A DNA stretch of 39,158 nucleotides from an uncultured bacterium (GTDB lineage: Bacteria > Cyanobacteriota > Vampirovibrionia > LMEP-6097). Location of the stretch: NCBI GenBank assembly GCA_903930015.1, contig CAIYXB010000079.1:1-39158 (forward strand). Reading direction: 5' to 3'. The notes beneath the pieces were generated by a model. It ran no database searches. It was not told the DNA's origin and was given only the letters and a program-made list of their open reading frames with translations. Positions 7,680-31,271 of the stretch are shown in pieces. Made by a program: the position numbers and the translations under genes. Position 1 is the first letter of the stretch, and every line of letters begins with the position of its first letter.

Positions 7680-8203
7680 TGAGTGTTAAAATATGGCTAA
7701 ATCAGCCTGGTATAGTAAAAAAACTACAGCTTTTGGCTTTAATAAGCCTGAGCTTGAATATTTTTTTACTCCTAAATAGAATTCCTCAATCCTGCAAAAA
7801 TAAGCCCGCCCAAGAGCTGCCAGAGCCCAAGGAGGAGCAAAAAAAGCAAACCAGTAATCTAGAGATCAAAAATTTTCTCAAAGAGTATTTAAATTACTTT
7901 TTTGGTACTGGACTTGTAGCAAGAAGTTTTATAGAAAAATATTCAGATGAAGAACTTTTTAAAAATGAGCTTGCTGATCAGCTTGATCAAAGAACACTAA
8001 AAGAGTTATCTAGTAATTTTAACATCTCAGATTTTTACATTGAAACAAAAGCCCAGGACACATATCAAATCATACTTGTTGGTATAGAGAGTTTTAATAA
8101 TAATCAATACCAAGATAGAGAAATTACTATGATCTTAGAGTTAATCTACCAAGACGATAAGTTCATAGTCCAATCTATACCTAAGTTTGAGGTGAAAGCA
8201 TGA
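7679..8203 (+). CDS. bitopic membrane protein, positional VirB8/TcpC-like candidate
   Basis: One N-terminal TM helix followed by a domain of about 120 aa with alternating beta-like segments. The ATG overlaps the upstream TAA by 1 nt. Confidence 0.3.
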   Translation: MSVKIWLNQPGIVKKLQLLALISLSLNIFLLLNRIPQSCKNKPAQELPEPKEEQKKQTSNLEIKNFLKEYLNYFFGTGLVARSFIEKYSDEELFKNELADQLDQRTLKELSSNFNISDFYIETKAQDTYQIILVGIESFNNNQYQDREITMILELIYQDDKFIVQSIPKFEVKA

Positions 8204-9495
8204 AATTTAAATTATTAATAGTATTAGTATCCCTTCTTCAAGTAATGTCAGTCAAATCCGAAGTAAGCTTTGTTGACAAGATACTTGATCAACAAACAAA
8301 TGAATATCTAGAAGACCGAGACTATTTTCAAAAAATAAATATTCACACAAAAGAATCTCCTCTTGCAAAAAGTAAAGAAGAAAAAGAACTATTTTCATTT
8401 GAGCAATGGGAAAAATTACGCGAAGATAATCTAGGCGCAATAGATCTTGGTAAAGATATCGCGTTAAATAAGATAGGTGGACTTGCAACTGGAGTAATAG
8501 ACGTAACTCATCAGGTGAAAAGAGGCGTCAAATCAGCAATTCAAGAGAGTTTTGGTGGTTATGCAGAGTACCAAAGACGAAAACAGGTTGAGGAAATCGC
8601 AAATAGTACCTTTATAAACCGAAAATTACTAGGAGATCTCTTTATAAGAAACAACAATGAAGATTTAGAAATGGGTTTTCAAAACAAAGGATTTAGTTTT
8701 ACTAGTTTTAATGAAAAAACATATAGCTATAAACTAATTAGAGAAATAGTCCAAAACGAAACCATCAAAAATCTTAGAGGGTTGATCATAAAAGTAACTA
8801 TATTTTTACTTATGTTGATGATTACAATTAAGATACTTGCTGCTCTAAAACAGGGTAACAGTGTCATTGAGACATTTACAAAGCCCTTAATAAATTTAAT
8901 ATTAGCCTTAATAGCAATTGGAGCTGGTTATAAGTTTCTAAGTTTAAATCTCAACTTAGCAAATAAACTCGCAAAAGCATTTACCATGATGCTCTATGAT
9001 TTTAAGGCTGAGTCATTAATGAATCCAGGTGAAGCTTGGACAAGTTATGCTGAAGATTATGGTTATTTCCCAACAATGGTTCTTGCAGTATTTGATATGC
9101 TATCGCAAGTGTTTATAGGATTTTTCTATATTGCAATTATTGCATTTATAGTATTTGGTATGATTTTTTATCCATTTTGGATAATATTTTCTGTCTTTCA
9201 ACCTAGTAGACTGGTTTTTATTGAATCCTACATTAATTGGATAAAAGCAAATTTGGTTTTAGTATTTAGTCCAATATTAATTATAATTTTTCGTATCATA
9301 AGCTTAGAATTGAGTAATGACTATATATTTATGAGTATTTTGGCAAAGACTCTGAGTTTTTATTCATTACCACTTTTAATGTATTTTATTTTCCTAAAAG
9401 CAAATCCCACAATTGACTTTGATTATGAGAAAATTGATTATTCAAGTCAATTAAAAGAAGAAATTAGAGACTTGCTTGCAATAAAAAATGCTTAG
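8200..9495 (+). CDS. polytopic membrane protein, VirB6/TrbL-like candidate
   Basis: Signal peptide, soluble region of about 190 aa, then five or more hydrophobic helices. ATGA overlap with the upstream gene. Confidence 0.35.
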   Translation: MKFKLLIVLVSLLQVMSVKSEVSFVDKILDQQTNEYLEDRDYFQKINIHTKESPLAKSKEEKELFSFEQWEKLREDNLGAIDLGKDIALNKIGGLATGVIDVTHQVKRGVKSAIQESFGGYAEYQRRKQVEEIANSTFINRKLLGDLFIRNNNEDLEMGFQNKGFSFTSFNEKTYSYKLIREIVQNETIKNLRGLIIKVTIFLLMLMITIKILAALKQGNSVIETFTKPLINLILALIAIGAGYKFLSLNLNLANKLAKAFTMMLYDFKAESLMNPGEAWTSYAEDYGYFPTMVLAVFDMLSQVFIGFFYIAIIAFIVFGMIFYPFWIIFSVFQPSRLVFIESYINWIKANLVLVFSPILIIIFRIISLELSNDYIFMSILAKTLSFYSLPLLMYFIFLKANPTIDFDYEKIDYSSQLKEEIRDLLAIKNA

Positions 9496-17145: not shown

Positions 17146-19004
17146 GCAGCTAAAAGATTATTCCTAATACTACCTTTATTGTCTAAATAATATTTTGAAT
17201 TTCGTAAAGAACTTATGTAAGGATGAACAACTTTGTACTGATCAGCTCTCTTTCTATCGGCTTCTTTTTTTGATCTTTTTGGCTCAGCTAACAAAGTTAA
17301 CTTAGGAGCCCAGATTGTCTTAAAGGCATCCACAGCACCTTTCGTCTCTTCTTTATAAGCAACAATGTCCTGAATATGCCAATTACCCCAGTTCCTCATA
17401 AATTTAAAAATTTTATCTCTTGATTCTTTAAAGACATCAAGTTTAACTAATTCTGTTTTAAAGGCTTTGTCATCAAGTGATTTGTTCTCTAGCAAAGCTT
17501 TCAGTCCAGTTATAGGATTCGCTTCTGCTTTTTTTAGGGAGCTTTGAATATCATTCTCTAAAGAAGTTATAATATCCCTGAACTTAATCAATGCAGTATT
17601 AATTTTTTCAGGATTAGGAATTTCCATTACATGATCTTTATATAACTTATCTCTATCTACAACACCCTCAGCAACAAACCAATTTATCAATACTTGTGAA
17701 ACAACAGCATCAAATACATCATTAACATCATTTTGAGTAGCGTAACGCAGCATTCTTTCAGATAAAACAAAATCCCTAATTACATTAATAAGCCTATGTT
17801 GAATTTTATCTCCAAATTTATTTGTGTCCGCAAAATCAATCAAAGCTTGAATATCAACTCTCATTTCTTCAAAAGCTGCTGATTCAAAATAGTCTTTTAA
17901 AAAATAACCAACATCTTTTATTGTTCTTGGTTGCAGCCTCTGATCACCTGGCAATGCAATTTCAGCATCAGAATTTACTCTAGGAATCTCTCCAGTTCGA
18001 TGCAAATCCTCGTGACGAGTTAACCAAAAAGAACTTGCCTTAAAAATATCTGAAGGAAGAACATCCTTGAGTGTAGCAAAAGTATTTTTAGCAACTCTTG
18101 AAATATTACTTAAAGCATTCGATGAACTTTCATGAGCAGAAGTAAATAAATTTCCTATAGCAACATTCAATTTAGTTACAAAAGTATTACCGTTATCAAT
18201 CAATGGATTTAACAGCTTAGTTGTAAATTTTTTAAATCGATTGTAAAAAAAATCTGCTTTATAAAGAGTAAATGAATTGGGATTAACTTCACCTACATGC
18301 GCTTCAGGAAACAATCCCACCAAGCTCGGATTTTTCATTTCAAGGCTTGAATTAGTAGATTGTGAGACTCTTGATTTTGAACCTTCTAGGAGAAATTTTT
18401 CTAGAAACATCTTATCAATAGATTTCCAACCAATTACGGGTACATGCATATTTTTGATAAATGGGATTTTAAATAAACTGAAAATAAAATTCGTATCTAA
18501 TTGATCAAATACAGCTCTTGTACGACTAAAATCACCAATCTTTGAATCTTTAACTGCTACTTGAAACATAGGGTGAGATAAAAATTCATATTTTTTTCTT
18601 TGATCAACAGATAAAGATTTTGAAATATGATTATCACTGTGTAGATCAAAATGTGCTTCAAATATTTTTTGAAATTCTCCCTGCAACTCTCTTTTTAAGC
18701 GAATCTCTTTATCAATTAGCTGGCCCTTATCTAATGTATTAGCTAAGCTATCATAAACAGCTTGTAGCTCAGCTGCTTTATCATCGATGAGAGTGTTTGC
18801 TTTTATAGTTAACTCATCAAGCACTTTAAAATTTTCTTTACTTAAATGTAATCCAGCAAATTTTGGCACTGGCACATGTAAAATACCTGAATCAGGCTCA
18901 ATAATTTTTTTTCTTACTGAAGGCTGAAGTCCCAAATCACTTACAATCTCAAGAGGGTGAACTGAGGGAGTATTTCTTTTTAAACTAGTAATTGCTGTAA
19001 CCAT
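17142..19004 (-). CDS. hypothetical protein (620 aa), no recognisable domain
   Basis: Long uninterrupted ORF. Stop codons overlap convergently with the LuxR-type gene. Confidence 0.5.
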   Translation of the reverse strand: MVTAITSLKRNTPSVHPLEIVSDLGLQPSVRKKIIEPDSGILHVPVPKFAGLHLSKENFKVLDELTIKANTLIDDKAAELQAVYDSLANTLDKGQLIDKEIRLKRELQGEFQKIFEAHFDLHSDNHISKSLSVDQRKKYEFLSHPMFQVAVKDSKIGDFSRTRAVFDQLDTNFIFSLFKIPFIKNMHVPVIGWKSIDKMFLEKFLLEGSKSRVSQSTNSSLEMKNPSLVGLFPEAHVGEVNPNSFTLYKADFFYNRFKKFTTKLLNPLIDNGNTFVTKLNVAIGNLFTSAHESSSNALSNISRVAKNTFATLKDVLPSDIFKASSFWLTRHEDLHRTGEIPRVNSDAEIALPGDQRLQPRTIKDVGYFLKDYFESAAFEEMRVDIQALIDFADTNKFGDKIQHRLINVIRDFVLSERMLRYATQNDVNDVFDAVVSQVLINWFVAEGVVDRDKLYKDHVMEIPNPEKINTALIKFRDIITSLENDIQSSLKKAEANPITGLKALLENKSLDDKAFKTELVKLDVFKESRDKIFKFMRNWGNWHIQDIVAYKEETKGAVDAFKTIWAPKLTLLAEPKRSKKEADRKRADQYKVVHPYISSLRNSKYYLDNKGSIRNNLLAA

Positions 19005-19081
19005 TAATTATTACTAAAGAACATTATATAAGAAGTTAACTAATTACACTAATATTTATTATTTTGATATAATTTAATTAA

Positions 19082-20029
19082 ATGGAATCAAAATTAGAGA
19101 TAAAAAATGACTTCTGGGGAGAACTTGATCTTGACGGTGTAATAACAATAGCATCAAGACTAAAAAGGTTATCTGATCTTTTTTATCAACAAGTACAAGA
19201 AGTATATGATTCAAGATTAAGAAGTTTTAAAACCTCCTGGTTTTCGGTACTAGCAACAATCAAAAGAGAAGGTGTTATTGATTTTAAAACTCTTGCAGAT
19301 AAAAACAATGTTTCAAACTCTGCAATTTCGCAAGTAATAAGAGAATTAGAAAACAAGGAACTTGTTGATATTAAAATTGGATTAGATAAAAGATCAAGAT
19401 TAATTTCATTAACTCCAAAGGGAGATAAAATACTTAGCAGTATAATTCCTGACTTAATTGATATCGAATCTGTACTTAAAGATATTTTAGGTAGAGATGG
19501 ATCTTTTTTAATAAAAGTCTTGGATAAAACAGAATACAAACTTAGAAAAAGTTCTTTCTTCGATATGCTTGAAATTTCAATTGATAAATATAATACAAAG
19601 GATAAAGATTCGTTTAGAGAGCTTAATATGGAGTGGATAAATGAATATTTTGGCTCATGTGAAGATTTTGATATTAGTTTTTTTGAAAGACCTGAAGACT
19701 TTACCTTCAACAAAGGGGGTTTTATATTACTTGCCAAGCAGAATGATAAAGTTATTGGAAGTATCGCACTTATACCTGAATCAAAGACAAGTTTAGAAAT
19801 AGCAAAATTAACTACACATAAAGACTTTAGAAGAAGAGGCATAGCACAAAAACTTTTAGACTCAGCAATTATTTTTACCCAAGCAAATTCTTACAAACAA
19901 ATTACGGCTCATTCTAATACTTGTTTAAAAGAAGCTCAAAAATTTTACGAGAAAAATAAATTTGAATCTAAACCATATCAAGATGATAGATATAATAGAG
20001 TAGATGTTATATACTCAAAGAAGATTTGA
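19082..20029 (+). CDS. MarR-type HTH / GNAT N-acetyltransferase fusion protein
   Basis: Winged-helix segment (VSNSAISQVIRELENKELV...DKRSRLISLTPKG). C-terminal GNAT motif A (HKDFRRRGIAQKLLDSAI). Confidence 0.75.
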   Translation: MESKLEIKNDFWGELDLDGVITIASRLKRLSDLFYQQVQEVYDSRLRSFKTSWFSVLATIKREGVIDFKTLADKNNVSNSAISQVIRELENKELVDIKIGLDKRSRLISLTPKGDKILSSIIPDLIDIESVLKDILGRDGSFLIKVLDKTEYKLRKSSFFDMLEISIDKYNTKDKDSFRELNMEWINEYFGSCEDFDISFFERPEDFTFNKGGFILLAKQNDKVIGSIALIPESKTSLEIAKLTTHKDFRRRGIAQKLLDSAIIFTQANSYKQITAHSNTCLKEAQKFYEKNKFESKPYQDDRYNRVDVIYSKKI

Positions 20030-20046
20030 CTAGGAATAAGTAATCT

Positions 20047-21237
20047 ATGGTAAGTGCTACAATTCCCGAAATTCAAACAGGTATTCCAGTTATTAGGGAT
20101 TTTCATAATGTCCCTAGAACTCAGGTAGTTACTACTCAAATCGATGAAAAAAGAGTAATAGGGAAGGGACTTGCCAAACAAACTCTTAGATTTGATTACC
20201 AAACGGAGGACCTGAAATTTTTTTTAGGAGAAGATGGTTTTAATCAATTTATATCTCAACTAGAAAAACAAAATCCAGATAAAGCAATTTCACAAACTGA
20301 TTACGATGTTGCTTTTTTAAAGTATCTTACTATCTCTTCTAACAATCAATTAGAAAAAGGGCTTGGTTCACTCAAAGATATCGCAAACAAAGTGATGAGT
20401 CAAGTACCAAGCTTATTAATCTATAGTGCTGGGCAGGAGGTTCAAGATCTTTTTGAACACCAACCGAGATTAACTCAAAAAGCAATTGAATATTTAGTTC
20501 TTGATGATGAAAGATCTGGACTCGCAAGTCAATTCAAAGATTTCAATAAATCAACTAATTACAATATCACTTCTGATGCTAAAAGAGAATTATTTTACGA
20601 ATTAGCAATGAGGGTACTTAGAGCTAAAGTAATTAAAGCTTGGACAAACCCTAAAGTAGAGAGCCAAGATCAACTATATCAAGCAAGGTCAGAGGCTTTA
20701 AAACAAATTCAATTAATAGAAAAGGGAAAAGAAACTAGTATGCTTACATCAAGAAGTAATAAAGCTTTAACTCTAGCTCAATTGCTTGCTGTGTCTGCAA
20801 TAGTTTTAGCTGGGTTGAATGGAATATTAGGTAAACAAGTAACTGATCTTAATCAAGTGGTTGGTGATAAACAGCTTGAACTTGAACAAAGACGAGGTTT
20901 ATCTATATTACAAGGGGATACTATTCCAACCTCAACACAAGAACAAGCACTTAAAGCGCTCACCCCAACCGAGCAACAATTCTTTAGGGATCTATCGAAT
21001 GAATTAATTAAGCAAGCAAAATTAAGATTTCCAAATGAAACTAAACGTGAATTTTCTTTTCTACTAGGTAAACTAGAACAAGATAAAATCAAAATGATAT
21101 TAAAAAATGAAGGCAGGATTCATTTCACGATACCTATACGTACATTCCAGGAATTATACAATAAATCAACAGTCATATCAACAGAAACTAGTCCAATAGA
21201 AAGACTTATTTTAGAGTTACCTAAATATTTAAATTAA
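20047..21237 (+). CDS. hypothetical protein with one central TM helix
   Basis: Long ORF. TM segment LTLAQLLAVSAIVLAGLNGIL. No domain recognised. Confidence 0.45.
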   Translation: MVSATIPEIQTGIPVIRDFHNVPRTQVVTTQIDEKRVIGKGLAKQTLRFDYQTEDLKFFLGEDGFNQFISQLEKQNPDKAISQTDYDVAFLKYLTISSNNQLEKGLGSLKDIANKVMSQVPSLLIYSAGQEVQDLFEHQPRLTQKAIEYLVLDDERSGLASQFKDFNKSTNYNITSDAKRELFYELAMRVLRAKVIKAWTNPKVESQDQLYQARSEALKQIQLIEKGKETSMLTSRSNKALTLAQLLAVSAIVLAGLNGILGKQVTDLNQVVGDKQLELEQRRGLSILQGDTIPTSTQEQALKALTPTEQQFFRDLSNELIKQAKLRFPNETKREFSFLLGKLEQDKIKMILKNEGRIHFTIPIRTFQELYNKSTVISTETSPIERLILELPKYLN

Positions 21238-21649
21238 CACTTCCCAATTTCTTCCTTTTACAATGAATTGGATCATTAGGAACTGCATCACAATACGTTG
21301 GAGCACCACAACATGGATTCCAAGTATAAGGTGAATCACAGCCGTAAGGACAATCATCATCATCTACTCCATAAAAAGAAGGTGTTGTAATAAGTTTTAA
21401 CAAACTAGATTCATTCTGATAATTTCCAACCAATTCATCTATAGCAGATTTAAAAGCTCCGCCTAATCTTTTTGTAAATTTAGCGTCTTGTGTTGCAGAC
21501 TCAATACAAACAGTGACAAGAGGATTTCTTCCGATTGTCTTACAATTAGTTTCAGCAAAAGTTAAAACATTGGATTTCTTAAAACTTTGTGCAAAAACAG
21601 CGATTTGAAAAATCACTAAAACGGGTAATATAAATTTTAAAAACTTCAT
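21221..21649 (-). CDS. small secreted cysteine-rich protein
   Basis: Signal peptide MKFLKFILPVLVIFQIAVFA. AGGAGG Shine-Dalgarno. Cys-rich C-terminus (DDDDCPYGCDSPYTWNPCCGAPTYCD...HCK). Confidence 0.5.
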   Translation of the reverse strand: MKFLKFILPVLVIFQIAVFAQSFKKSNVLTFAETNCKTIGRNPLVTVCIESATQDAKFTKRLGGAFKSAIDELVGNYQNESSLLKLITTPSFYGVDDDDCPYGCDSPYTWNPCCGAPTYCDAVPNDPIHCKRKKLGSVNLNI

Positions 21650-22226
21650 CCTAAGTCCTCCTAAAGACTCACCCCAGTGACTACCCCTAGGTAAATTACT
21701 TGTCGGACGAATTAAAATAAATCTAGAATAAAATACATTAGTACTTAATTAATTTTTTTTAATAGTTAAAAATGGGGTTTTTTCTTAGCAATGCCTTTGA
21801 ATGAGTTACGTTCACTAATCAAATCGATGCGGCTAAGTCTTTGTAAAAAAAGAAAGGTGTTTATAGTAACGGCAGTAACTTCATCTCTGTCGGTATTCGA
21901 AATGCTATTTCTCTTTTTTGGGTTTACAAAAATTATCTTTTTGTTTTGCATGAGTGGGGGACCTGCCTTTTGGTTTCTATAAACACCTGGGTGTTCACCC
22001 TTCAATATCGGTTAAGTGCTTAACTAAATGAATTAATCATTTCTTATAAAAGAATAAAAAAAATCCTTATTTTACAAGGGTTTTTCAGAATTAATTTCGC
22101 AAATACGAAGACACTATTACAAAAATATGTGTAATAGTGTTGAAGAGAAAATCTCAAATTTCAAAAATGCGCAAGTTTCCTTGTGAATTTAGGATTTACA
22201 AAAAGTTATGTTGAAATTATTTAATA

Positions 22227-22360
22227 AATAGACATCTTGCGAAACATCGTTTCGCAGTAGATGTCGCCCGAAAAAAGGTCGCAACGACGCCACTCTTCGG
22301 AAGTTGCGCTAAGGATAATTCCGACTTTCACAAAAGGTCTAATGAGTATCTAACTTAAGA
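22227..22360 (-). repeat. unit U copy B (reverse complement of 14987-15118)
   Basis: Hand alignment shows only a handful of differences over about 132 nt. Contains the gacatct...agatgtc and gcgaaac...gtttcgc nested hairpins. Confidence 0.65.
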
Positions 22361-22363
22361 AAA

Positions 22364-22580
22364 TGGTACCGGTATCTGGGTTTCGCCCGGACTGTGTGTG
22401 CCGCCCCGCTCGAAGATACATAGGAAAAATAGTATAGGCGTAGCTGCCGACTTTTAGGAGGCAGATGCGCCTATACTAATTCTTCTAGCTGTAGTTTGTG
22501 AGCTTGCGAGCAAACTACAAGTGAGTGTCTTCGAGCGGGGCGGCACACACAGTCCGGGCGAAACCCAGATACCGGTACCA
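22364..22580. repeat. 217-bp palindromic element: perfect 53-bp inverted arms enclosing two hairpins
   Basis: 22364-22416 is the exact reverse complement of 22528-22580 (checked base by base; 34/53 are G/C). Inner hairpins are 22430-22440/22468-22478 (11 bp) and 22490-22498/22511-22519 (9 bp). Confidence 0.75.
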
Positions 22581-22786
22581 CTCTGACAACCGAATACGCT
22601 TTGGCTTTAAGCCAGCCCTCGGCTTCGCTTCGCTCAGCCTCGGGCGTCTCGCGCTAACAAGTGAGACTACAGTGTTAAAGAGCTGCTTCTTTAAGTTTGA
22701 TTGTAATTTTTGTCTGAAATTTTACAGGGCTGCTGCAGCTGTCAGTCAGCAGAGCTGAAAAATTTCAGACAAAAAATCATAGGGAA
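22573..22786 (+). repeat. repeat X' (left inverted repeat of the island)
   Basis: 22573-22658 equals the reverse complement of 30986-31071 with 1 mismatch. Lower-identity homology with an indel of about 22 nt continues to about 22786. Contains an 11-bp perfect stem (22712-22722/22760-22770). Confidence 0.7.
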
Positions 22787-22831
22787 TGCAAGGAGGCGAA
22801 GCCGACGCGCTAGTCTTCATTGCGCAGCAAT

Positions 22832-22983
22832 TTGAGTGAGCCCGTAGGGCGAGCGAATATATTACTGCAATACGAGAAACCCTAAAGTGCCACTTTAGGG
22901 TTATACACAAGCCTTTATCTCAGCGTGCGGAGCGAGACCTAGGCTCGCGGACTCCTGAACAAGGGTGAATTTCTAGCTACGAC
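22832..22983 (+). repeat. repeat Y copy 1 ending in the Z motif (22964-22983)
   Basis: Direct repeat of 25321-25470, clearly alignable by eye over about 150 nt with numerous substitutions. Conserved hairpins ccctaaagt/actttaggg and gcgag/ctcgc. Confidence 0.6.
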
Positions 22984-23178
22984 CGTATTCCATCAGAATT
23001 ACCACTCATAGGTTGGAAGCGAGACAAACAAATAATTACAAGGTCTTTGATATTTTTTTTCTAAACAATTCAATGAAAGTTGATGTCTTTGCTTTTATGA
23101 AGTGAGACTGAAGGGCTCACGGAACCAATCTGAGACGCTAGACTCAGATTGCAAAAACCTATTCAATTTGTATATTAA

Positions 23179-23913
23179 TTAATGTATACGTCTCCAACGT
23201 TTAAAAGCCTTGACCTCAGTAGAATTTAAACCAAACCACTCACCATTTTTTCTTTTATCCACAAAACGCTTATGCCAGTATGCTTCTATGCCGCTTGGAT
23301 CGTCAGTTTTGATTACATGAACCAATTTAAGATCTTCAGGCATTTGAACTCTCAATTCCTTTCCTCGCTGAACAGAATCTTTACTTTTACCAATTTTGTA
23401 CTCGTTACGATTACCGTGTTTATAAAGATATACTTCTCCTACTTCCAAACTAGTATCAGTTCCATTTATATCTTGTTCACGGGAAGATGTTTTTATCACT
23501 GGCTCACAAAATTCTAAAATATCTTCATAACTATTTTTATCACTACAATATTCTATTATTTTTGATGCAAGATGTTGTTTTGAGCCATAACGATTTTCAT
23601 AAGTTGATTTGTAAGGAAATTTATCGTTACTACATGCTTCCAACCTAATCTCTGAGGCAGTGGGAAATTTATTTAATTTACGCATTAGTTCAATAAATTT
23701 CTCAATAAGAAATTTATCGCTATATGCTCCCTGCAAAGAATTGGGAGTAAATCCTGCTTCTGTAATCGCGTCTGAAAACTTAGCCCAATGTTTTTGCCAA
23801 TCATAGCGTTTAATACCAATTTCTTTTTCAAACTTTGCCATACCTAATGGCTTGCCACCATTTGACTCTGTGGTTCTTTTTATCTCAGCTAAAATCTCTT
23901 CTTTACCTATCAA
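23179..23913 (-). CDS. T5orf172 (GIY-YIG-like, MUG113-type) domain protein with two N-terminal homing-endonuclease-associated-like repeats
   Basis: C-terminus VYLYKHGNRNEYKIGKSKDSVQRGKEL...IEAYWHKRF...NGEWFGL. TTG start preceded by AAGGAGA, which overlaps the ImmA stop codon. Confidence 0.6.
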   Translation of the reverse strand: MIGKEEILAEIKRTTESNGGKPLGMAKFEKEIGIKRYDWQKHWAKFSDAITEAGFTPNSLQGAYSDKFLIEKFIELMRKLNKFPTASEIRLEACSNDKFPYKSTYENRYGSKQHLASKIIEYCSDKNSYEDILEFCEPVIKTSSREQDINGTDTSLEVGEVYLYKHGNRNEYKIGKSKDSVQRGKELRVQMPEDLKLVHVIKTDDPSGIEAYWHKRFVDKRKNGEWFGLNSTEVKAFKRWRRIH

Positions 23914-23924
23914 ATGGTTCTCCT

Positions 23925-24425
23925 TTAATTGCTTTTAAATATTTTGTGATTATACACATGCCACCAAGCTGCATCTTTACTAACATTGTAAAGTCTAGCT
24001 AAACTTTCAACATCTCCATCCAGCTTTTCATAATCTTGCTTAAATGAATCAATAGGCATAAGTAACTCAGCAGCAAACTGGTTTGCCTCTACTTCCTTTG
24101 GATCATCATTGCAAAAATCTAATTTTGTTTCAGAGTCTGCATGTCCTAGAATGACATGACCTAATTCATGCGCAACAGTAAATCTTTGTCTAACTATAGA
24201 TTTTTTGTTGTTATAACCAATAATGGCTCTACCATTTTCAAAAAAATGAAGACCGTCAATGCTTCCCAAATCCCTTGCGTGAATCTCTACATTCATAGTC
24301 TTACGTACTTGTTTGATAATTTCATTAAGAACTATAGGGGCAGATTTTAAGCCAGTCTGCTCCAGTAATTTTTTAGCAAACTGCTTTGCAATTTTAATTC
24401 TTGCTTTATTCTCTTCTTCAATCAT
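23925..24425 (-). CDS. ImmA/IrrE-family zinc metallopeptidase
   Basis: HELGHVILGH motif followed downstream by EVEANQFAAELLMP. ATGA overlap with the XRE gene. Confidence 0.85.
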   Translation of the reverse strand: MIEEENKARIKIAKQFAKKLLEQTGLKSAPIVLNEIIKQVRKTMNVEIHARDLGSIDGLHFFENGRAIIGYNNKKSIVRQRFTVAHELGHVILGHADSETKLDFCNDDPKEVEANQFAAELLMPIDSFKQDYEKLDGDVESLARLYNVSKDAAWWHVYNHKIFKSN

Positions 24426-24769
24426 TTATTCTGGCTTTTTACAAACTCAATGAAATCTAATATTTTGTCCCTATCTTTGGGTTTCAATTGTGAAAGTTCT
24501 TTATCTTTACGAAAAACTAATTTGAAATCTAAGTCTTCAAGATCTTCTGATTTGCCTAAAAAGAAATTAATATCCCTATGCAGCACCTCTGCAATAGTTT
24601 CTAAATCTTCCACTGAAACTTTTCTATTCCCAGACTCAATCAATGAAATTGCAGTACCAGATTCAAAGCCTAATAATTCTGCTAATCTTTTTTGTGATAT
24701 TTCTGCGGACTCTCTTGCTTCTTTAATTCTAGCCCCAATAAGTTTATACTTATTATCATCGCTTTTCAT
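24422..24769 (-). CDS. XRE/Cro-cI-family HTH repressor
   Basis: IGARIKEARESAEISQKRLAELLGFESGTAISLIESGNRKVSVEDLETIAEVL. Confidence 0.85.
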   Translation of the reverse strand: MKSDDNKYKLIGARIKEARESAEISQKRLAELLGFESGTAISLIESGNRKVSVEDLETIAEVLHRDINFFLGKSEDLEDLDFKLVFRKDKELSQLKPKDRDKILDFIEFVKSQNK

Positions 24770-24775
24770 ATTGAA

Positions 24776-24842
24776 ATTATAGACTTTTCAAAAAGTGTTG
24801 ACAAGTCCTTATCAAAATGATAAGCTAGGGTTATCAAAGTGA
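24776..24842. promoter_or_regulatory. back-to-back promoters with overlapping -35 boxes, plus palindromic operator sites
   Basis: Plus strand: TTGACA (24798-24803), 17 nt, TAAGCT (24821-24826). Minus strand: TTGTCA (24804-24799), 17 nt, TATAAT (24781-24776), ending 6 nt before the XRE ATG. Palindrome CTTATCAAAATGATAAG at 24808-24824 and half-site TTATCAAAGTGA at 24831-24842. Confidence 0.5.
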
Positions 24843-24885
24843 GGCACACGTGTGTTTCACAAGAAAACTAGAGGAAATTAGAATA

Positions 24886-25167
24886 ATGGCAAATTATGAA
24901 ATAAAATGTATTAACAAAATTGATAGAAATGATCCTACTGAAAGAATCCAACGTGTTGGTGGTTATAGCAACGGCTCGAATTGGAAAATTACTGTCGCAG
25001 AAGCTATTGGTTACATAGAAAGTAAGCAACATAGTTTTTATGTAACTAAAAATGGTAAAACCGTATGGGTCATTGTCGCTGTGAGTAGATATGGAAACAA
25101 ATATATTAAAACCGAAGCTGATGGTAACGAGCCAAATAACCTGCTCAGCTTGCCAGAGTGTGTATAA
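24886..25167 (+). CDS. DUF3892-like small protein
   Basis: Start placed at the ATG at 24886 (GAGGA upstream). C-terminal ...TEADGNEPNNLLSLPEC matches my memory of the DUF3892 signature. Confidence 0.55.
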   Translation: MANYEIKCINKIDRNDPTERIQRVGGYSNGSNWKITVAEAIGYIESKQHSFYVTKNGKTVWVIVAVSRYGNKYIKTEADGNEPNNLLSLPECV

Positions 25168-25172
25168 ATGGT

Positions 25173-25238
25173 ATGACAGTAAAATACTTCATCTATGCTC
25201 GCAAGTCTTCCGACTCAGAAGATAGACAAGTGCTTTCT
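25173..25238 (+). pseudogene. displaced 5' stub (first about 22 codons) of a paralogous large serine recombinase gene
   Basis: MTVKYFIYARKSSDSEDRQVLS compared with MQYFLYARKSSESEDRQMLS of the intact gene at 29457. Most nucleotides match by eye, including an identical 15-mer TCAGAAGATAGACAA (25215-25229 = 29493-29507). Homology stops at about 25238. Starts 5 nt after the DUF3892 stop. Confidence 0.7.
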
Positions 25239-25248
25239 GAACCTTGGA

Positions 25249-25311
25249 GTCGTAGCTATAAATTCACCCATTCTTCGGCTTTAACTAAAAAGGTGAATTT
25301 CTAGATACGAC
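25249..25311. repeat. inverted pair of Z motifs (20-nt arms, 2 mismatches, 23-nt loop containing CTTCGG)
   Basis: gtcgtagctataaattcacc (25249-25268) against ggtgaatttctagatacgac (25292-25311). Confidence 0.6.
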
Positions 25312-25320
25312 CCAATTGTC

Positions 25321-25470
25321 TTGAGTGAGTCAAAGGCGAACGAAAATATATTACCAAAATACAAGCAACTCTAAAGTACCACTTTATACTTATGCACAAG
25401 CCCTTAATTCAGCATGCGAAACGAGACCCAGGCTCGCAGAGCCATGAACAAGGGTGAATCTCTAGCTACA
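25321..25470 (+). repeat. repeat Y copy 2 ending in the Z motif (25453-25470)
   Basis: Direct repeat of 22832-22983. Ends 22 nt from the stop codon of the minus-strand TIGR04141-like gene. Confidence 0.6.
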
Positions 25471-25491
25471 CCCCCCTATCTTTTTTAAAGA

Positions 25492-27327
25492 CTATTCATC
25501 AAGATCACTCTTGCAAATTTGACATATCTTTAAGTCAAAATCATATTTTTTAACTTCTTGATTTAGCTGAAAAATAGAGAACTTTGCAATATTTGATTCA
25601 AAGGATTCAATATCTGTGATCGATCTTATCGTAGAAGCTTCATCTACAAAAGCTAAACAAAATTCAATTCTTTTTTTGCTCCTAAATAAATCAATGAAAT
25701 CAGATTCAGAATATCTTGATAGCCAATCACTAAATTTTCTAAAATATTCATCCTCACCTTTTGATACTCGAACAGCTTTTTCGTAAACTTTTTTTAAAAA
25801 CTCACCTTTCTTTGTTTTTATAAGATCTTCATGAAGTCTTCTTGCTGAGACTTGGATTTGGCTAGAAAGCTCACGAATAGAATTATTAAATCCTTTCTTC
25901 ACATGAATAATTTGTATAGAATCTTCATTCACCTTAATAAGATCACAGAGTTCAATATTCTCAACAATTAACCTATCAAGTACAATAAAATTTGCATTCC
26001 TATAGAACGAAATATTAAAATCTTTTTCTTTCTTATGCTTGAGAATGTTCCAAGGTACACCAATAACAGAATTATCAAGATGCGTATCTAGTAAAGTTCT
26101 TATCCCACTATTAAGGTTGTCAATAAAATTCCTTTTTACTATATACCAAAGTCCATCAATAAGAAAATAAGTTTGTTTCTTAAATTCAAACTCACCATGA
26201 ATATGACTAGTCAAAGAGCCTACAGTACAGACTTTACCGTCATAATCAAACGATGTAATATTAATGTTTTTAATGAGTCTTAAAAAACTTTCTTTATCGA
26301 TATCACTATATTGTGAAGATACTTTAAGCAACTTAAATATTTCTATCGGTCTAGTCAAAGATACTTCATCAATTATTGCTTCAAAACTTCTACCAATAGT
26401 TATTTTATACTCATTCGCACATAAATACTTTTCATAATCTTTATGACACAGATCAAATTCATTAAAAGGATCATTTGCATTTTCAATATTACAATATTTT
26501 TTGAATAGTTCTTCACCGATATGTTCATTAAGACTATCTCGTAGTTCCTTGCCACGCTTTCCATTTTTACTTAGAGATTTAATTTGACTTAAATCTATTG
26601 TCGACTTCATTCTTAAAATAGTGCTAAGTTTCTTTAAAATAAGTGTAATTTCATAAGGATCTAATATCTTTTTAAGGAGGAATGATGACTTCGCCTCACA
26701 AGTTAAGTTCTTTTTTATATCTTTCTCATTAAAACCTAACTGCTTTTGAAGAACACCTTGATCTAATTCTGCTCTAATCACTTTATAAACACTTCCAAAG
26801 TTATCTTCCTCTGTGATTCTTTGATCATCTCGAAAAAAACGTGTGTTAGCTATAATTTGTCCAGTTAAAATTCTTTCTTGTACTGATTTCACTGATTTAG
26901 AACTTGATGAAATTAACTTTTCAAGTATATTTAAGCCAAAATCATCAACAACAAAAGGTTGAATAATATGATGGCCATAACCTCCTGTAACCGCAAAAAT
27001 ATTTTTTCCATCAGAAAAGAAACAAACAAACGATGGAATATTATTTGTTTTTAAATTGTATTTCAAATCATCAGTCATCAAAGTTGATAAGAATTTATAC
27101 CAAGTTGCCTCTCTTGAAAATACACCACTGTAAATGTAAATATCAAAATTATTTAATTCTAATCCACTAACAGTCTTTCTCTCTTCAAATTTTTTCTTTT
27201 CACCCTTATTATAAAATTCAATAACTTTATTACAAATTTCCTTATGATCAACCAAACCTGTTTTCTGTGATATCAAATCAAGATTTAATAGATAGATGCC
27301 AGTCTGTATACCAGATTTACTTCCCAT
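25492..27327 (-). CDS. TIGR04141/DUF6119-like protein with a C-terminal PD-(D/E)xK-like motif (putative nuclease)
   Basis: C-terminal ...VLDRLIVENIELCDLIKVNEDSIQIIHVKKGFNNSIRELSSQIQVSARRL. Start preferred at the ATG at 27327 (GGGAG Shine-Dalgarno) over the TTG at 27360. Family call is from memory of family signatures and needs an HMM search. Confidence 0.5.
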   Translation of the reverse strand: MGSKSGIQTGIYLLNLDLISQKTGLVDHKEICNKVIEFYNKGEKKKFEERKTVSGLELNNFDIYIYSGVFSREATWYKFLSTLMTDDLKYNLKTNNIPSFVCFFSDGKNIFAVTGGYGHHIIQPFVVDDFGLNILEKLISSSSKSVKSVQERILTGQIIANTRFFRDDQRITEEDNFGSVYKVIRAELDQGVLQKQLGFNEKDIKKNLTCEAKSSFLLKKILDPYEITLILKKLSTILRMKSTIDLSQIKSLSKNGKRGKELRDSLNEHIGEELFKKYCNIENANDPFNEFDLCHKDYEKYLCANEYKITIGRSFEAIIDEVSLTRPIEIFKLLKVSSQYSDIDKESFLRLIKNINITSFDYDGKVCTVGSLTSHIHGEFEFKKQTYFLIDGLWYIVKRNFIDNLNSGIRTLLDTHLDNSVIGVPWNILKHKKEKDFNISFYRNANFIVLDRLIVENIELCDLIKVNEDSIQIIHVKKGFNNSIRELSSQIQVSARRLHEDLIKTKKGEFLKKVYEKAVRVSKGEDEYFRKFSDWLSRYSESDFIDLFRSKKRIEFCLAFVDEASTIRSITDIESFESNIAKFSIFQLNQEVKKYDFDLKICQICKSDLDE

Positions 27328-27462
27328 GAACTCCCTATCTAAACCATTGCTCCATTCCAAAGATAAATTAGTTTAATTTCAATATCATTAATTATTTTTT
27401 GATTAGCATTAAAGGCATAATCTAAATTTTCAAGTTCTATATTCATACACATCAGATCAAAA

Positions 27463-29343
27463 TTAAACTATTTTCTTTTTCTCAAGAAGCTTAGCTTTAA
27501 AATGAGCCTGAGACTCACGCTTTACTTCATCAAGAAAATTACTCTCTTCAATCTCTTTAAATTGTTCATTACTAATATTTTTTCGTTGTTTTGATTGTAT
27601 ACCCAATCCATCATTAATTCTCTTGCTTACAAAACGTTGTATCCAAGCAAAATCAGTAAAGCGAGGGTTCAGGACTCTGCTTTTAAACTTTAGATTCAAT
27701 TCTTTCAATATGTCCGTCACTATACTTTTTGCTTTTTCATTTAATAAATTTTTACTTGCTTGACGTTTATTTTTTGGCTTTGGCGTTTTTTTAACAAAGG
27801 AGTCTACTTTATAACCTTTATTACTCAACACTTCTAAAAATTTTAATTTCTGAGCGCTGTCCATATTTGCAAAATCAGATAGAGCTTCTTTAACTTTTTC
27901 ATCTTCAAGATCAATAAAATCTGAAGAAAAGTCAAGTAAATTCTCACCCGTTTCTCTTATTGCAGCAAGTTTTTCATCTTTTTGATTATTTGTATCGGTT
28001 TCTATATCAAAATTTACAAAGGAGTCCTCTAAGTTACCTTTACTATCATCCACAGAAATTTCAAGTTTACTAATAAAATCCTGATCTTCTTCATCAAATA
28101 ATTTAAATTCATCAAATCTTTCAATCTGATTCAAACCAAGATGTGAAACAACCCAACACTCATTAGTCTCAGCATGCTTTCGAATTACCCTACCAATAAA
28201 TTGAATATATGGATTAAGCGACCTGAATGGCTTAAAGATTGCAGCAACACCAAGAGGTTTGTGATCGAAACCTTCTCCCAACATACCAACATTTACGATT
28301 ACGTCAATTTTGTTTTTCTTTAACTTATCTAATACTTCACTGTTATCACTTTCAGTTTCTTTTGAATTAACAAGTCCTACTTTTAATCCCATTCTTTCAA
28401 AAGCGGGTTTAACGAATTCTCTTGCATGCCTTATAGTCATTGCAGCTGCAATAATCTGATGGTTTTGATTTGGGAACTTCGTTTTTAAGACATTAAGCTT
28501 TTCAACTGCTTTTTGAGCAATAGAAGCACAACAGTCTTCAGACATAGCAACACTACGTCTAAACCAAGCATCATCTTTAAGTTTCATAATGTCACTAAGA
28601 GAATATTCTTTCCCAGCTTCATCTAAAAATCTTAATTCAACTTGTTCTGGAGAAACATTACTCGTTCTAATATTTCTAATAATTCGATCTCTAATCGCAT
28701 CCTTAAAGTGATAAGTATAGATCTTTTCCCCATCAAGCTTTTTACCATCAGACCGAAAAGGAGTCGCAGTAAGTCCAATTATTTTTGCATTTGAAAAAAA
28801 ATCTATAATCGTCTTATAGGTATTTGCTTCTTGATGATGAGCTTCATCAATTATAACGAGATCAACATCATCGCTTCTGCTTGCAAAAAACTTTTCAATA
28901 TCATTGAGTTGATGATAATTTCCAATAATTATTTGATGTTCGTCAACATCCGAATTATTAACAGTCGAATCAAGAACCAATGTAAAAAGTTCTGATTCCG
29001 TCAATTCTTTATCTGATAAAAGCTCTAGTGCTTTATAAATATTTGCTCCAGGGTTCTCAGTTATGTCCAGATCATCATTTATTTGAGTTGCTAAAGCTTT
29101 ATTCGGTGTAATAATAAGAGTTTTTTTCTTACACAATCCAAAAGGCAGTATTGCAATTAGAGCCGACTTCCCTGTACCTGTAGGCATTTGAATCAGTGTT
29201 TGTCGATTATAATTTTTTTTAGAATAATGCTGAAGTGCTGAACTAAATGCTTCAGTTTGGCATTCTCTTAACTTCTTTCTAGAAATCTCTATTTCACTAA
29301 ATACATTACTCATCTGATTAATAATATCCAAATTACTAAACAT
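27463..29343 (-). CDS. SF2 DEAD/DEAH-box helicase (ResIII + Helicase_C type) with a C-terminal extension of about 200 aa
   Basis: Motif I MPTGTGKS, Ia IITPNKAL, II IIDEAHHQ, III GLTATPFR, VI QFIGRVIR. Confidence 0.8.
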   Translation of the reverse strand: MFSNLDIINQMSNVFSEIEISRKKLRECQTEAFSSALQHYSKKNYNRQTLIQMPTGTGKSALIAILPFGLCKKKTLIITPNKALATQINDDLDITENPGANIYKALELLSDKELTESELFTLVLDSTVNNSDVDEHQIIIGNYHQLNDIEKFFASRSDDVDLVIIDEAHHQEANTYKTIIDFFSNAKIIGLTATPFRSDGKKLDGEKIYTYHFKDAIRDRIIRNIRTSNVSPEQVELRFLDEAGKEYSLSDIMKLKDDAWFRRSVAMSEDCCASIAQKAVEKLNVLKTKFPNQNHQIIAAAMTIRHAREFVKPAFERMGLKVGLVNSKETESDNSEVLDKLKKNKIDVIVNVGMLGEGFDHKPLGVAAIFKPFRSLNPYIQFIGRVIRKHAETNECWVVSHLGLNQIERFDEFKLFDEEDQDFISKLEISVDDSKGNLEDSFVNFDIETDTNNQKDEKLAAIRETGENLLDFSSDFIDLEDEKVKEALSDFANMDSAQKLKFLEVLSNKGYKVDSFVKKTPKPKNKRQASKNLLNEKAKSIVTDILKELNLKFKSRVLNPRFTDFAWIQRFVSKRINDGLGIQSKQRKNISNEQFKEIEESNFLDEVKRESQAHFKAKLLEKKKIV

Positions 29344-29456
29344 TTGCTTGAATTTAGCTAATCCATATTAACAAAACTGTCCATTCAATAGCTTCTTTTT
29401 ATCTAACAATATTACTACCTGGCCAAACCACACAAAATCCTTTAAAATAAAGCTCT

Positions 29457-31010
29457 ATGCAATACTTCCTCTACGCCCGCAAATCTTCTGAATCAGAAGA
29501 TAGACAAATGCTATCCATTGAGGCTCAAATCCAGGAGTTAAAGGACTTTGCGAAGAAAAACAACTTAGAGATAGTCAAAACCTTCACTGAATCCATGTCA
29601 GCCAAGGCACCTGGGAGGACTGTCTTTAATCAAATGCTGACCGAGCTTGAATGTGGTACGGCTGATGGCATACTGGCTTGGCATCCTGACCGTCTTGCAC
29701 GAAACATGTTTGACGGTGGAAAACTTCTGCACCTTATCGACAAGAATATAATTACTGATCTTAAATTTCCTAGTTTTTATTTCGACAAATCGGCTAATGG
29801 AATTTTTAATCTCTCTATTGCTTTTTCTCAGGCTCAATACTTTGTTCAAGGACTCAGAGAGAATGTCCTAAGAGGAATTAGACAGAAACTAAGACGCGGG
29901 GAATATCCAGGCAAGGCTCCTTACGGCTATATCAATAACCTAAAAACTAAAACAATAGAACCAGATCCTGAATATTTTCACATAATCCAAAAACTACTTA
30001 ATAAATTCTCTGAAGGCAATATGACTCAAGCAATGTTCAGAAAAGAATTATTTAATCATGGTTTACAAACCAAGAACGGTAACCAATTAAACTATGCTTC
30101 ACTATTTCATATTCTCACGAATCCATTCTACTATGGGGTCTTTAGGCTAAATGGCGAGCTTCATCAAGGCTCACATCAGCCAATGATCTCTAAAGAAACT
30201 TATGACAAGATTCAAGAAGTTCTTAAAAGCAAAACTAGAAAAGTAAATCACTCAGAAGAAAAGAAAAAAGAAAAAAACTATCTCTTCCAGGGTCTTGCTC
30301 GCTGTGGTAATTGTGGCTATGGAATCGTTCCAGAATGGCACAAGAAGAAATCTGGTTTGGTTTTTAAGTATTATCGTTGTAGCCGTAAGTCTAGAGTCTG
30401 CACTTGTGATGAAAAACCAGTAAACGAGAATCATCTTGCACAGCAAGTAGAAGAATTTATCAGCCACATAGCTATGCCTAATGATTGCTATAAAAAACTT
30501 CAAGAAAGAACCAAGCAATGGGCGGACGAAGATACTAAAAACTCTAAAGTGGCACTTCAGGGTTTATCTACAGAACTAACAAGTATCCAAAATAAGCTTA
30601 ATCAGCTTCTTGATCTTCAACTAGACGGTGAGATCTCCGTAGCTGAATACAAAAACAAAAAAAACACTTTAATCGAGAAAAAGGCCAATTTAGAAGATCA
30701 AAAAGCCAAAGTTTTAGCTAAAGGCTCAATTTGGGTTGAACCACTAGAAGATTGGATGAAAACCTGTAACCAAGCCGCTCAAAGCCTAAAGAGTCAAAAC
30801 TTTCAAGAGATGAATCGTATTCTTCAAAAAATCGGGTTGAACCACAGAATCTCGAAGAAAAAACTAGATATACAGTTTGTTAAACCCTATGATTTTTTGT
30901 TTGAAATCCAGCCACTGACTGACAGCTGCAGCAGCCCTGTAAAATTTACAGACATAACTAATCATCAAACGCAAAGAAGCAGCGCGTTAGCGCGAGACGC
31001 CCGAGGCTGA
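29457..31010 (+). CDS. large serine recombinase (resolvase domain + recombinase domain + zinc ribbon + coiled coil)
   Basis: YARKSSESEDRQ catalytic-serine region. LAWHPDRLARN. CGNCGYGIV...YYRCSRK zinc ribbon. Coiled-coil LNQLLDLQLDGEISVAEYKNKK. The last 42 or so codons lie inside repeat X. Confidence 0.85.
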   Translation: MQYFLYARKSSESEDRQMLSIEAQIQELKDFAKKNNLEIVKTFTESMSAKAPGRTVFNQMLTELECGTADGILAWHPDRLARNMFDGGKLLHLIDKNIITDLKFPSFYFDKSANGIFNLSIAFSQAQYFVQGLRENVLRGIRQKLRRGEYPGKAPYGYINNLKTKTIEPDPEYFHIIQKLLNKFSEGNMTQAMFRKELFNHGLQTKNGNQLNYASLFHILTNPFYYGVFRLNGELHQGSHQPMISKETYDKIQEVLKSKTRKVNHSEEKKKEKNYLFQGLARCGNCGYGIVPEWHKKKSGLVFKYYRCSRKSRVCTCDEKPVNENHLAQQVEEFISHIAMPNDCYKKLQERTKQWADEDTKNSKVALQGLSTELTSIQNKLNQLLDLQLDGEISVAEYKNKKNTLIEKKANLEDQKAKVLAKGSIWVEPLEDWMKTCNQAAQSLKSQNFQEMNRILQKIGLNHRISKKKLDIQFVKPYDFLFEIQPLTDSCSSPVKFTDITNHQTQRSSALARDARG

Positions 31011-31071
31011 TCGAAGCGAAGCCGAGGGCTGGCTTAAAGCCAAAGCGTATTCGGTTGTCAGAGTGGTACCG
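30885..31071 (-). repeat. repeat X (right inverted repeat of the island)
   Basis: Reverse complement of X' (22573-22786). Overlaps the recombinase 3' end and the last 8 nt of the tRNA. Confidence 0.7.
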
Positions 31072-31152
31072 ATGGCCGGACTTGAACCGGCACAGGAATT
31101 AATTCCCGACAGATTTTAAGTCTGTTGCGTCTACCGATTCCGCCACATCGGC
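31064..31152 (-). tRNA. trnL: tRNA-Leu(UAA), class II, CCA-encoded, no intron
   Basis: Folded by hand. Acceptor GCCGATG/CATCGGT (G1-U72 wobble). D-arm GCGGAATCGGTAGACGC. Anticodon stem ACAGA/TCTGT with loop CTTAAAA. Long variable arm GGAATTAATTCC. T-arm GCCGGTTCAAGTCCGGC. Discriminator A followed by CCA. Confidence 0.9.
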
Positions 31153-31271
31153 ACAGGAGAGAGTCATTTTGTAGACCAGACTTTAGAAGATTCTACACTA
31201 AGAAGAAAAATGTAAACATTAAGACTTAACTAGAGTTCTGGTGAAAATCCTAAAAGGGTTTCAGCAGAACT

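Follow-up and report, generated by a model that had tools for sequence, protein, structure and literature searches.

An island at a tRNA-Leu gene, probably moved by its own large serine recombinase, carries a second attP in inverted orientation

We analysed a 39,158-nt stretch of DNA (the window; one whole contig, G+C about 33%) from an uncultured bacterium of the Vampirovibrionia, and propose, with a probability of roughly 0.85, that an integrative island occupies positions 22364-31071 and is mobilised by its own large serine recombinase (LSR). The island is 8.7 kb in size and sits at the 3' end of a tRNA-Leu(UAA) gene, between directly repeated TGGTACCG cores at 22364 and 31064. Besides attL and attR at its ends, it holds a complete inverted copy of attP, one arm of which imitates a tRNA. 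A sequence-only reading of the same DNA had described an island bounded by inverted repeats of about 210 bp, whose tips supply the tRNA's 3' end. The island at the tRNA-Leu 3' end and the significance of the repeat are upheld here. The left limit is not: the left repeat arm lies 209 nt inside the true end, TGGTACCG at 22364, and belongs to the inverted attP.

Results

Direct cores mark the ends of the island

From left to right, the locus reads flank, core and reverse-complement tRNA mimic (attL); a spacer, arc 1; mimic, core and repeat X (the inverted attP); arc 2, with the LSR gene; and X', core and tRNA (attR; Table 1). attL and attR stand in direct orientation at the island ends and share only the short core, as in other elements moved by LSRs. 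The direct repeats that the sequence-only reading had missed, remarking on inverted ones in their place, are therefore present. They are only 8 bp long, and no Phage_integrase domain was found in the island (Pfam), so the island does not have the makeup of a tRNA island of the tyrosine-integrase type.

Table 1. Coordinates of the features of the island and its target gene in the window.
Feature	Position	Strand	Description or evidence
attL	22364-22419	plus	core copy 1 TGGTACCG (22364-22371) and arm a; true left end
Arc 1 spacer	22420-22524	no strand	105 nt between two tRNA-mimic arms; fold z = -21.5
Complete inverted attP copy	22525-22786	minus	psi arm, core copy 2 and X_L
LSR-middle-like fragment	22856-22980	plus	direct repeat of 25345-25469, 82%
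Cargo module 1	23179-25167	mixed	Pfam, PADLOC
MUG113/T5orf172 protein	23179-23913	minus	Pfam
CapP-like M78 peptidase	23925-24425	minus	PADLOC capP 5e-32
CapH-like helix-turn-helix (HTH) protein	24422-24769	minus	PADLOC capH 6e-14
DUF3892 protein	24850-25167	plus	Pfam
Decayed LSR pseudogene	25179-25469	plus	first 20 codons 25179-25238; internal fragment 25345-25469; repeats D1, D3
Cargo module 2	25492-29343	minus	Pfam
DUF6119 protein	25492-27360	minus	Pfam
ResIII/DEAD helicase	27463-29343	minus	Pfam; weak PADLOC matches to PbeA and Type IV restriction-enzyme models
LSR	29457-31010	plus	517 aa; 3' end lies in X'_R
X'_R	30885-31063	plus	P arm of attR; inverted copy of 22581-22786
tRNA-Leu(UAA)	31064-31152	minus	ARAGORN and Rfam; core copy 3 at 31064-31071

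A repeat search recovered inverted arms at 22554-22658 and 30986-31090 (105 nt, 90%). Counting from the core, the first mismatch falls at position 61 and the second at 87, which agrees with the single mismatch per 86 nt previously reported between 22573-22658 and 30986-31071. The weaker homology that had been traced with gaps to about 22786/30885 was likewise recovered, as an alignment of 213 columns (81%) extending to 22784/30885, with perfect blocks at 22717-22749/30915-30947 and 22762-22784/30885-30907. To the left of the repeat lies a palindrome with 56-nt arms (22364-22419/22525-22580, 98%). The outermost 8 nt of the repeat, CGGTACCA, are tRNA positions 69-76 and form the shared junction, as had been proposed; only the 53 bp then given for the palindrome arm needed correction. 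TGGTACCG occurs exactly three times in the window (22364, plus; 22573, minus; 31064, plus), where 0.12 occurrences are expected, and a 19-mer taken from the repeat has an expectation of 0 chance matches. The inverted repeat, the palindrome and the TGGTACCG copies are not due to chance.

The inverted attP consists of the tRNA-mimic arm psi (22525-22572), core copy 2 (22573-22580, reading CGGTACCA) and X_L (22581-22786). Its reverse complement is within two mismatches of the attP predicted from attL x attR. In attL, arm a has the reverse-complement sequence of the tRNA-mimic P' arm, and TGG...GGAC spans 29 nt, the attP-type spacing. On the tRNA side of attR, the T-arm and the 3' strand of the acceptor form the B' half-site.

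The unoccupied state of the site is provided by a relative, L108, which is syntenic with the window over 14849-22205 at 84-93% identity. In L108, TGGTACCG occurs once, LSR, X and tRNA mimic are all absent, and the tRNA 3' end is identical to that of the window (100% over the 45 nt in hand). We aligned the L108 attB with window positions 22324-22408, window positions 31024-31108 and the reverse complement of 22536-22620 (alignment A3); the core common to all four is TGGTACCG, and together they read as a textbook set of attB, attL, attR and attP. Synteny with L108 stops at about 22205, 159 nt left of attL, so the left boundary of the island is confined to 22205-22364. A 122-nt repeat (see below) fills most of this interval, and the flank side of attL is only weakly attributable. 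Two further relatives, L090 and L092, are occupied. L088, considered as another empty site, was rejected as a decayed island with an 89-aa LSR stub.

The target is the sole tRNA gene of the window (ARAGORN, Rfam), and the Rfam scan of the window returned nothing else. Its sequence reads GCCGATG...CATCGGT-A-CCA, so that pair 1-72 is the G-U wobble already pointed out by the sequence-only reading. There, the wobble was taken for a scar left when element-derived sequence replaced the tRNA 3' end, an idea that was to fall if island-free relatives had the identical 3' end and flank. Element-free L108 has that 3' end, over the same 45 nt, and tRNA-Leu(UAA) genes of unrelated metagenomic lineages without X downstream also show G1-U72 and end in ...GTACCA. 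Because the unoccupied site and these X-free lineages carry the identical 3' end, U72 is, on this comparison, native.

The recombinase gene ends in one arm of its attachment site

The recombinase has the domains of its family (Pfam: PF00239 Resolvase, 2e-19; PF07508 Recombinase, 2e-11; PF13408 Zn_ribbon_recom, 3e-11), and residues Y6, R8, K9 and S10 are invariant among 20 homologues, Ser10 being catalytic. The gene reads toward the convergent tRNA-Leu. In its closest homologues (50-62% identity, 553-581 aa) the frame runs into the convergent tRNA, a tRNA-Leu(CAA) in L001 and a tRNA-Val(GAC) in L002, and the C-termini read ...EW followed by the translated reverse complement of a tRNA. X aligns with the LSR 3' ends of L001 and L002, X'_R is homologous to those of L001, L002 and L092, and residues 516-570 of the homologue P0002 match both 30962-31093 (plus) and 22715-22539 (minus) in tblastn. 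Since X aligns with the 3' ends of homologues and the P0002 C-terminus matches both arms, the right repeat arm is, as judged by homology, the LSR gene's own 3' end, and the left arm is an inverted copy that runs on into tRNA-like sequence. Thus, X is a conserved end of a recombinase gene and not a generic dispersed repeat, the outcome that the sequence-only reading had named as speaking against an island.

The layout recurs at tRNA genes in several phyla

One genome per species was scanned with an alignment of the 20 homologues, which gave 80 loci. Together with L001-L003 and the window, and after L005 was dropped as a duplicate of L002, the survey comprised 83 loci, mostly from Patescibacteria, with others from Omnitrophota, from metagenome-assembled genomes (MAGs) labelled Gammaproteobacteria, and from further groups. 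A convergent tRNA gene lies within 260 nt at 51 of the 62 loci with enough downstream sequence, and nine kinds of tRNA are targeted (Ala 29, Gln 6, Leu 4, Ser 4, Val 2, Trp 2, Asp 2, Pro 1, Phe 1). An inverted copy of the LSR 3' end was found upstream of the gene at 67 of the 83 loci; 50 of these 67 copies are at least 95% identical, and their median length is 113 nt. Typically, some 110 nt separate the left arm from the start codon, and the minimal unit then measures about 1.8 kb. Seven loci have at least 1.7 kb of cargo between the left arm and the LSR; in the window this cargo amounts to 6.7 kb. Many contigs start or stop inside the repeat. A scan of viral contigs added one further locus with the same layout.

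The outer, reverse-complement mimic, which starts with TGG, adjoins non-conserved flank in the window and in L002, L007, L026, L029, L044 and L082. In the window it is 216 nt away; L002 and L007 have 190-203 nt, and L026, L029, L044 and L082 have 1.0-3.2 kb, an interval that cargo fills in these four. In Patescibacteria relatives, the cargo-bearing space between the mimic arms is 1-3 kb. When translations were read by eye, the L029 interval (6575-9764) appeared to encode a phosphotransferase-like (kinase-like) protein of 340 aa and an Erm/KsgA-like (rRNA-methylase-like) methyltransferase of 297 aa, and the L044 interval (7581-9770) GrpB-like and DUF218-like open reading frames (ORFs).

L092 (2643-3203, compared with window 30657-31153) has the same kind of element at the same tRNA; because the 3' part of its LSR is 91% identical to that of the window, far more than the flanking host genes (about 70-73%), recent horizontal spread of this element is suggested by the comparison. 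In L003 (11662-11732 and 21542-21612), a 71-nt copy (87%) of the 3' part of tRNA-Met follows the LSR, and the intact tRNA-Met lies 10 kb further on, past an island with tyrosine integrases, so that two types of island stand in tandem at one tRNA.

A tRNA mimic with attP-type spacing

At every locus the mimic adjoins the outer side of the left arm, and its last 5-8 nt are the same as those of the adjacent tRNA (TGCCA for Trp, GACCA for Phe, CGCCA for Ser, AGCCA for Gln, CACCA for Ala). The mimics carry a T-loop-like GTYCRRA motif. In the window this motif is GTCCGGG; it starts at 22552 and stands 29 nt from CCA, compared with 24 nt in the tRNA. At about 32 of 37 loci, among them the window, L007 and L009, the same two distances were found, and the mean identity between tRNA and mimic is highest at an offset of +5 (0.36, against a background of about 0.25). 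Rutherford et al. reported that the motif bound by the zinc-ribbon domain (ZD) lies 5 bp closer to the crossover in attB (positions 11-19) than in attP (positions 16-24; PMC3783163). Since the +5 shift fits this rule, the mimic is, by its spacing, an attP-type half-site and the tRNA the matching attB-type half-site; the 5-bp spacing of LSR elements is thus found on the tRNA side. Among Patescibacteria, a mimic block of about 57 nt is conserved over hosts and tRNA types, which argues that the mimic belongs to the element. We also considered the mimic as part of the target and rejected this, given its conservation across hosts and its absence from L108.

A cycle of integration and excision

In the cycle that we propose, the LSR would join the element's attP (X', core and tRNA-mimic arm) to a chromosomal attB at the tRNA-Leu(UAA) 3' end (tRNA trailer, core and tRNA T-arm/acceptor region). 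On attB the recombinase would read the T-loop region of the tRNA, and on attP its imitation 5 bp further out. Crossover would take place within the shared TGGTACCG, and the motif spacing would put it close to positions 71-73, some 5 nt in from the tRNA end. The tRNA would be restored unchanged, with attL at 22364 and attR at 31064 in direct orientation. Excision would proceed by attL x attR. A circular form is known from one relative, L077, a contig of 4585 bp with a 51-nt terminal overlap and the sole circular relative found; there, the LSR runs into X', TGGCGG and the reverse-complement mimic, which is the attP junction predicted for an excised element.

Several observations weigh against this account. 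In L108, the tRNA is separated from the syntenic block by 8.9 kb of unrelated DNA, perhaps another island or genes specific to that lineage. Directly left of the attL core, 9 of 10 nt agree with the L108 trailer, but 8 of these nt recur at the other copy of the 122-nt repeat, and we downgraded them as native tRNA trailer for that reason. The window LSR is without the in-frame C-terminal tail of its homologues, its annotated frame stopping at 31010. A homologue-like tail is open in frame 2 from 30962 through the tRNA (...SEWYRWPDLNRHRN*; 29457-31105 region), and this could reflect a frameshift, a sequencing error or a dispensable tail. Whether compared as attB-type or attP-type, the X half-site showed no consistent motif or offset in common with the tRNA or the mimic. 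Pfam and PADLOC brought out no candidate recombination directionality factor in the cargo, such factors being too diverse for a profile search. In L077, the inverted copy is reduced to a 28-nt remnant. Finally, the perfect arms of 80-269 nt exceed what recombinase binding should need, and a double-stranded circle with two identical attP sites in inverted orientation should give both orientations in equal numbers, whereas 51:1 was observed.

The role of the inverted attP

Our first choice among the readings of the extra attP, held tentatively and at somewhat under even odds, is a live second attP that is kept identical to its partner by gene conversion; we place it before a functionless by-product, an inversion switch and a folded stem, in that order. 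An excised circle would carry two inverted attP sites, and after integration the internal one could still let the island recombine with a further tRNA gene. In two Omnitrophota loci, L079 (3775-5637) and L083 (5397-7190), the LSR and two arms lie between two convergent, different tRNA-Ser genes, which looks as if each attP copy had recombined with a tRNA gene, the internal one with the second tRNA, by inversion or by cassette exchange. Across loci, the perfect arm length on the X side is 80-136 nt; on the mimic side, it is 25-269 nt. LSR lineages that share only about 40% identity retain the inverted attP, and because the arms stay perfect over this divergence, they mean concerted evolution or re-creation in each cycle.

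Orientation has to be accounted for as well. L058, with the mimic on the far side, is the one genuine opposite case in the 51:1 ratio. Because a double-stranded circle with two attP sites should integrate both ways, a strand-specific intermediate or selection is needed to explain the bias; selection might come, for one, from transcription that reads through from the tRNA promoter and drives the recombinase. L019, L042 and L043, which read tRNA(+)-repeat-LSR(+)-repeat, were rejected as inverted states and attributed to assembler paths through the repeat. L042 has, at its far end, the 3' end of the same tRNA in reverse complement; L019 and L043 stop within the far arm.

The inverted attP may instead be a non-functional by-product, an ancient palindromic duplication kept uniform only by gene conversion, which we consider unlikely, if the nearest competitor. 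Arm identity in the window is highest by the core (99% over 86 nt) and falls further in to 77-81% with indels, as conversion tracts would leave it; the lengths of the perfect tracts vary between loci, and L077 has nearly lost its inverted copy. However, the copy is retained across LSRs that have diverged to about 40% identity and in very small genomes, and L079 and L083 indicate a usable internal attP.

It is distinctly less probable that the recombinase flips 22581-31063 by pairing the internal attP with attR, turning the LSR from convergent to co-directional with the tRNA as an on/off switch for recombinase or cargo. As in Hin-type switches, near-identical inverted arms enclose a recombinase gene, a flip would leave both junction sequences unchanged, and L058 is genuinely opposite, its mimic being on the far side. 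Yet the sites are not equivalent, one being attP and the other attR. According to PMC3783163, serine integrases normally do not pair these two. Orientation is 51:1, the exception is a decayed locus (the L058 repeat is down to 74%), and inverted-looking contigs of the L042 type are assembler paths. The recombinase-invertible segment raised by the sequence-only reading is not supported; inversion of the 8.5-kb segment keeps a small share of the probability.

A bolder idea, to which we give a lower probability still, is that the two inverted attP copies are the two strands of one stem in a strand-specific, single-stranded circular form. By analogy with XerCD acting on CTXphi and IntI on attC, such a circle would fold into a dumbbell in which attP is the only double-stranded part, and the serine recombinase would use this stem. 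Integration of the stem would open the chromosome into a hairpin-capped linear molecule, and replication followed by one attL x attR exchange would yield the three-site layout and an element-free sister chromosome. The geometry alone (inverted attP copies, perfect arms, structured spacer hairpins) is compatible with a folded single-strand site. If true, this would explain why the arms stay perfectly complementary over 80-269 nt while the elements diverge, why the inverted copy is nearly universal and orientation so one-sided, and why spacer hairpins with compensatory changes resemble a single-strand origin.

We compared the spacer of the window directly with that of L007. Surrounding the 217-nt module, the stretch 22355-22590 (236 nt) has a predicted RNA fold of -176 kcal/mol (z = -21.5), and arc 1 contains two hairpins, at 22421-22487 and about 22489-22522. 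Relative to L007 537-646, both hairpins of the spacer (22420-22524) are preserved by compensatory changes, and the single-stranded motifs GGAAAATAGT, ATTCTTCTAGC and CTACAAGT are conserved. Because of these changes and motifs, the comparison suggests a functional folded single strand, of DNA or RNA, in arc 1.

The other two origins offered by the sequence-only reading fare worst. The first, a transposon with terminal inverted repeats, would run from 22573 to 31071, be cut at the outer tips of X and have the tRNA-like sequence on the left as part of its target; we think this very improbable. The repeats are long, near-perfect and terminal-looking, they enclose only the recombinase gene in minimal relatives, and the window junction TGGTACCA is itself palindromic. 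However, the left arm lies inside the island, the two ends differ (mimic at one, X' at the other), and the mimic and its outer inverted copy are conserved over genomes and tRNA types and so are owned by the element. The L108 tRNA has no adjacent mimic, no mimic was found beside an unoccupied tRNA, and circular L077 joins X' to the mimic and not to X. Moreover, when junctions were read directly, the two X sites had opposite core polarities, with no palindromic dinucleotide in most relatives, so conservative excision by a serine recombinase between them was rejected. The second origin, two independent elements that entered CGGTACCA sites head to head, of which the left is mostly deleted, is just as improbable: three CGGTACCA/TGGTACCG sites and older LSR remnants that show repeated acquisition would suit it, but the remnants are direct, not inverted, and a three-site layout with perfect arms in more than 60 loci of distant phyla is not expected from accidental double insertion and decay.

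Cargo and older recombinase remnants

By its annotated domains, the cargo is of the defence-island type (Table 1). Exact-sequence look-ups with three proteins of the window gave no match. The two cargo modules are accompanied by pieces of older LSR genes. The fragment at 22856-22980 contains a 32-nt core 78% identical to 30526-30557 within the LSR gene, its match at the protein level being weak. The start of the pseudogene is matched by residues 1-20 of P0001, P0002, P0008 and P0010 at 70-80% (tblastn), and 25182-25238 is nearer to the LSR start of L007 (89%) than to the island's own gene (85%). All three remnants (22856-22980, 25179-25238 and 25345-25469) lie in direct orientation. Because older LSR fragments lie inside the island in this orientation, it grew by successive acquisitions.

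Repeats and the L108 locus outside the island

The 122-nt repeat is G+C-rich and structured, and is present as two inverted copies, 96% identical, at 14997-15118 and 22227-22348 (similarity to about 22356). One copy lies directly left of attL, and its end overlaps the putative tRNA trailer sequence. Neither copy matches the close relative L108, and for this reason the repeat appears to behave like a small mobile repeat resembling a miniature inverted-repeat transposable element (MITE-like). A short G+C-rich palindromic motif, cattgcgaagccacgaagtggctgaggcaatc, occurs in the intergenic region at 14700-14790 of the window; we take it to resemble repeats common in some bacterial intergenic DNA. 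In L108, the region 12224-21122, where the window has the LSR island, contains six ORFs (251-975 aa) with no Pfam match.

Discussion

We searched the literature on serine recombinases, tRNA targets and inverted repeats and came across no account of this layout; a tRNA-mimicking attP arm combined with a conserved, inverted second attP is not described in the literature searched. The loci point to a cross-phylum LSR clade that naturally targets tRNA genes in their most conserved part. The attP/attB pairs of these loci can be read directly from genomes, which makes them a ready source of recombinase/site pairs, and more than 30 independent systems among them naturally confirm the 5-bp spacing rule for attP and attB. 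If live, an attP inside an integrated element could cause inversions, or an exchange of cassettes, between tRNA genes; L079 and L083 look like such cases. The layout also bears on assemblies: many Patescibacteria contig breaks beside tRNA genes are explained by ends within perfect inverted repeats of 75-170 nt, and false palindromic contig paths through the repeat are an annotation trap for these MAGs.

The arrangement shares single features with several known systems. Hin/Gin segments likewise have a serine recombinase gene inside a segment bounded by inverted repeats. They use small invertases with short identical sites and an enhancer, whereas here the recombinase is large, the sites are unequal (attP and attR) and one orientation is dominant. 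In the single-stranded genome of the phage CTXphi, two inverted dif-like sites pair to form attP, and integron attC sites are folded in a similar way; both are used by tyrosine recombinases, and single-strand substrates have been demonstrated there. Two inverted site copies around a short spacer, which could fold into one site on a single strand, are common to these sites and the island. In contrast, the spacer of the window is 105 nt long with hairpins of its own, those of Patescibacteria reach 1-3 kb, and here a folded single-stranded form is a possibility that the sequence geometry fits.

Tyrosine-integrase tRNA islands (P4-like elements, tycheposons) resemble the island in inserting at a tRNA 3' end with the gene restored, in their accessory and defence cargo, and in remnants left by successive acquisitions. 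Their direct repeats are usually longer than those found here. Among Prochlorococcus elements (tycheposons and cryptic elements), 910 of 937 have tyrosine recombinases and only the remainder have a large serine recombinase (10.1101/2020.12.28.424599). The island differs from the tyrosine type in its recombinase family, in its long inverted repeats and in an identity block of only 6-8 bp.

Tn4451 (TnpX), Tn5397 (TndX) and SCCmec (Ccr) are, like this island, non-phage elements moved by an LSR through a circular form. Their targets differ from that of the island and they show no tRNA mimicry; to our knowledge, none retains an inverted attachment site. With the phage serine integrases (phiC31, Bxb1, Listeria A118/LI), the island shares a three-domain recombinase, attP x attB recombination into hybrid attL and attR with only a short common core, and a recognition motif shifted by 5 bp between attP and attB half-sites. 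Here, in contrast, the target is a tRNA 3' end that one attP arm imitates, and the LSR gene ends in the other attP arm, with homologue frames running on into the tRNA. The cargo is a small defence-like island or none, and a second complete attP is kept in inverted orientation.

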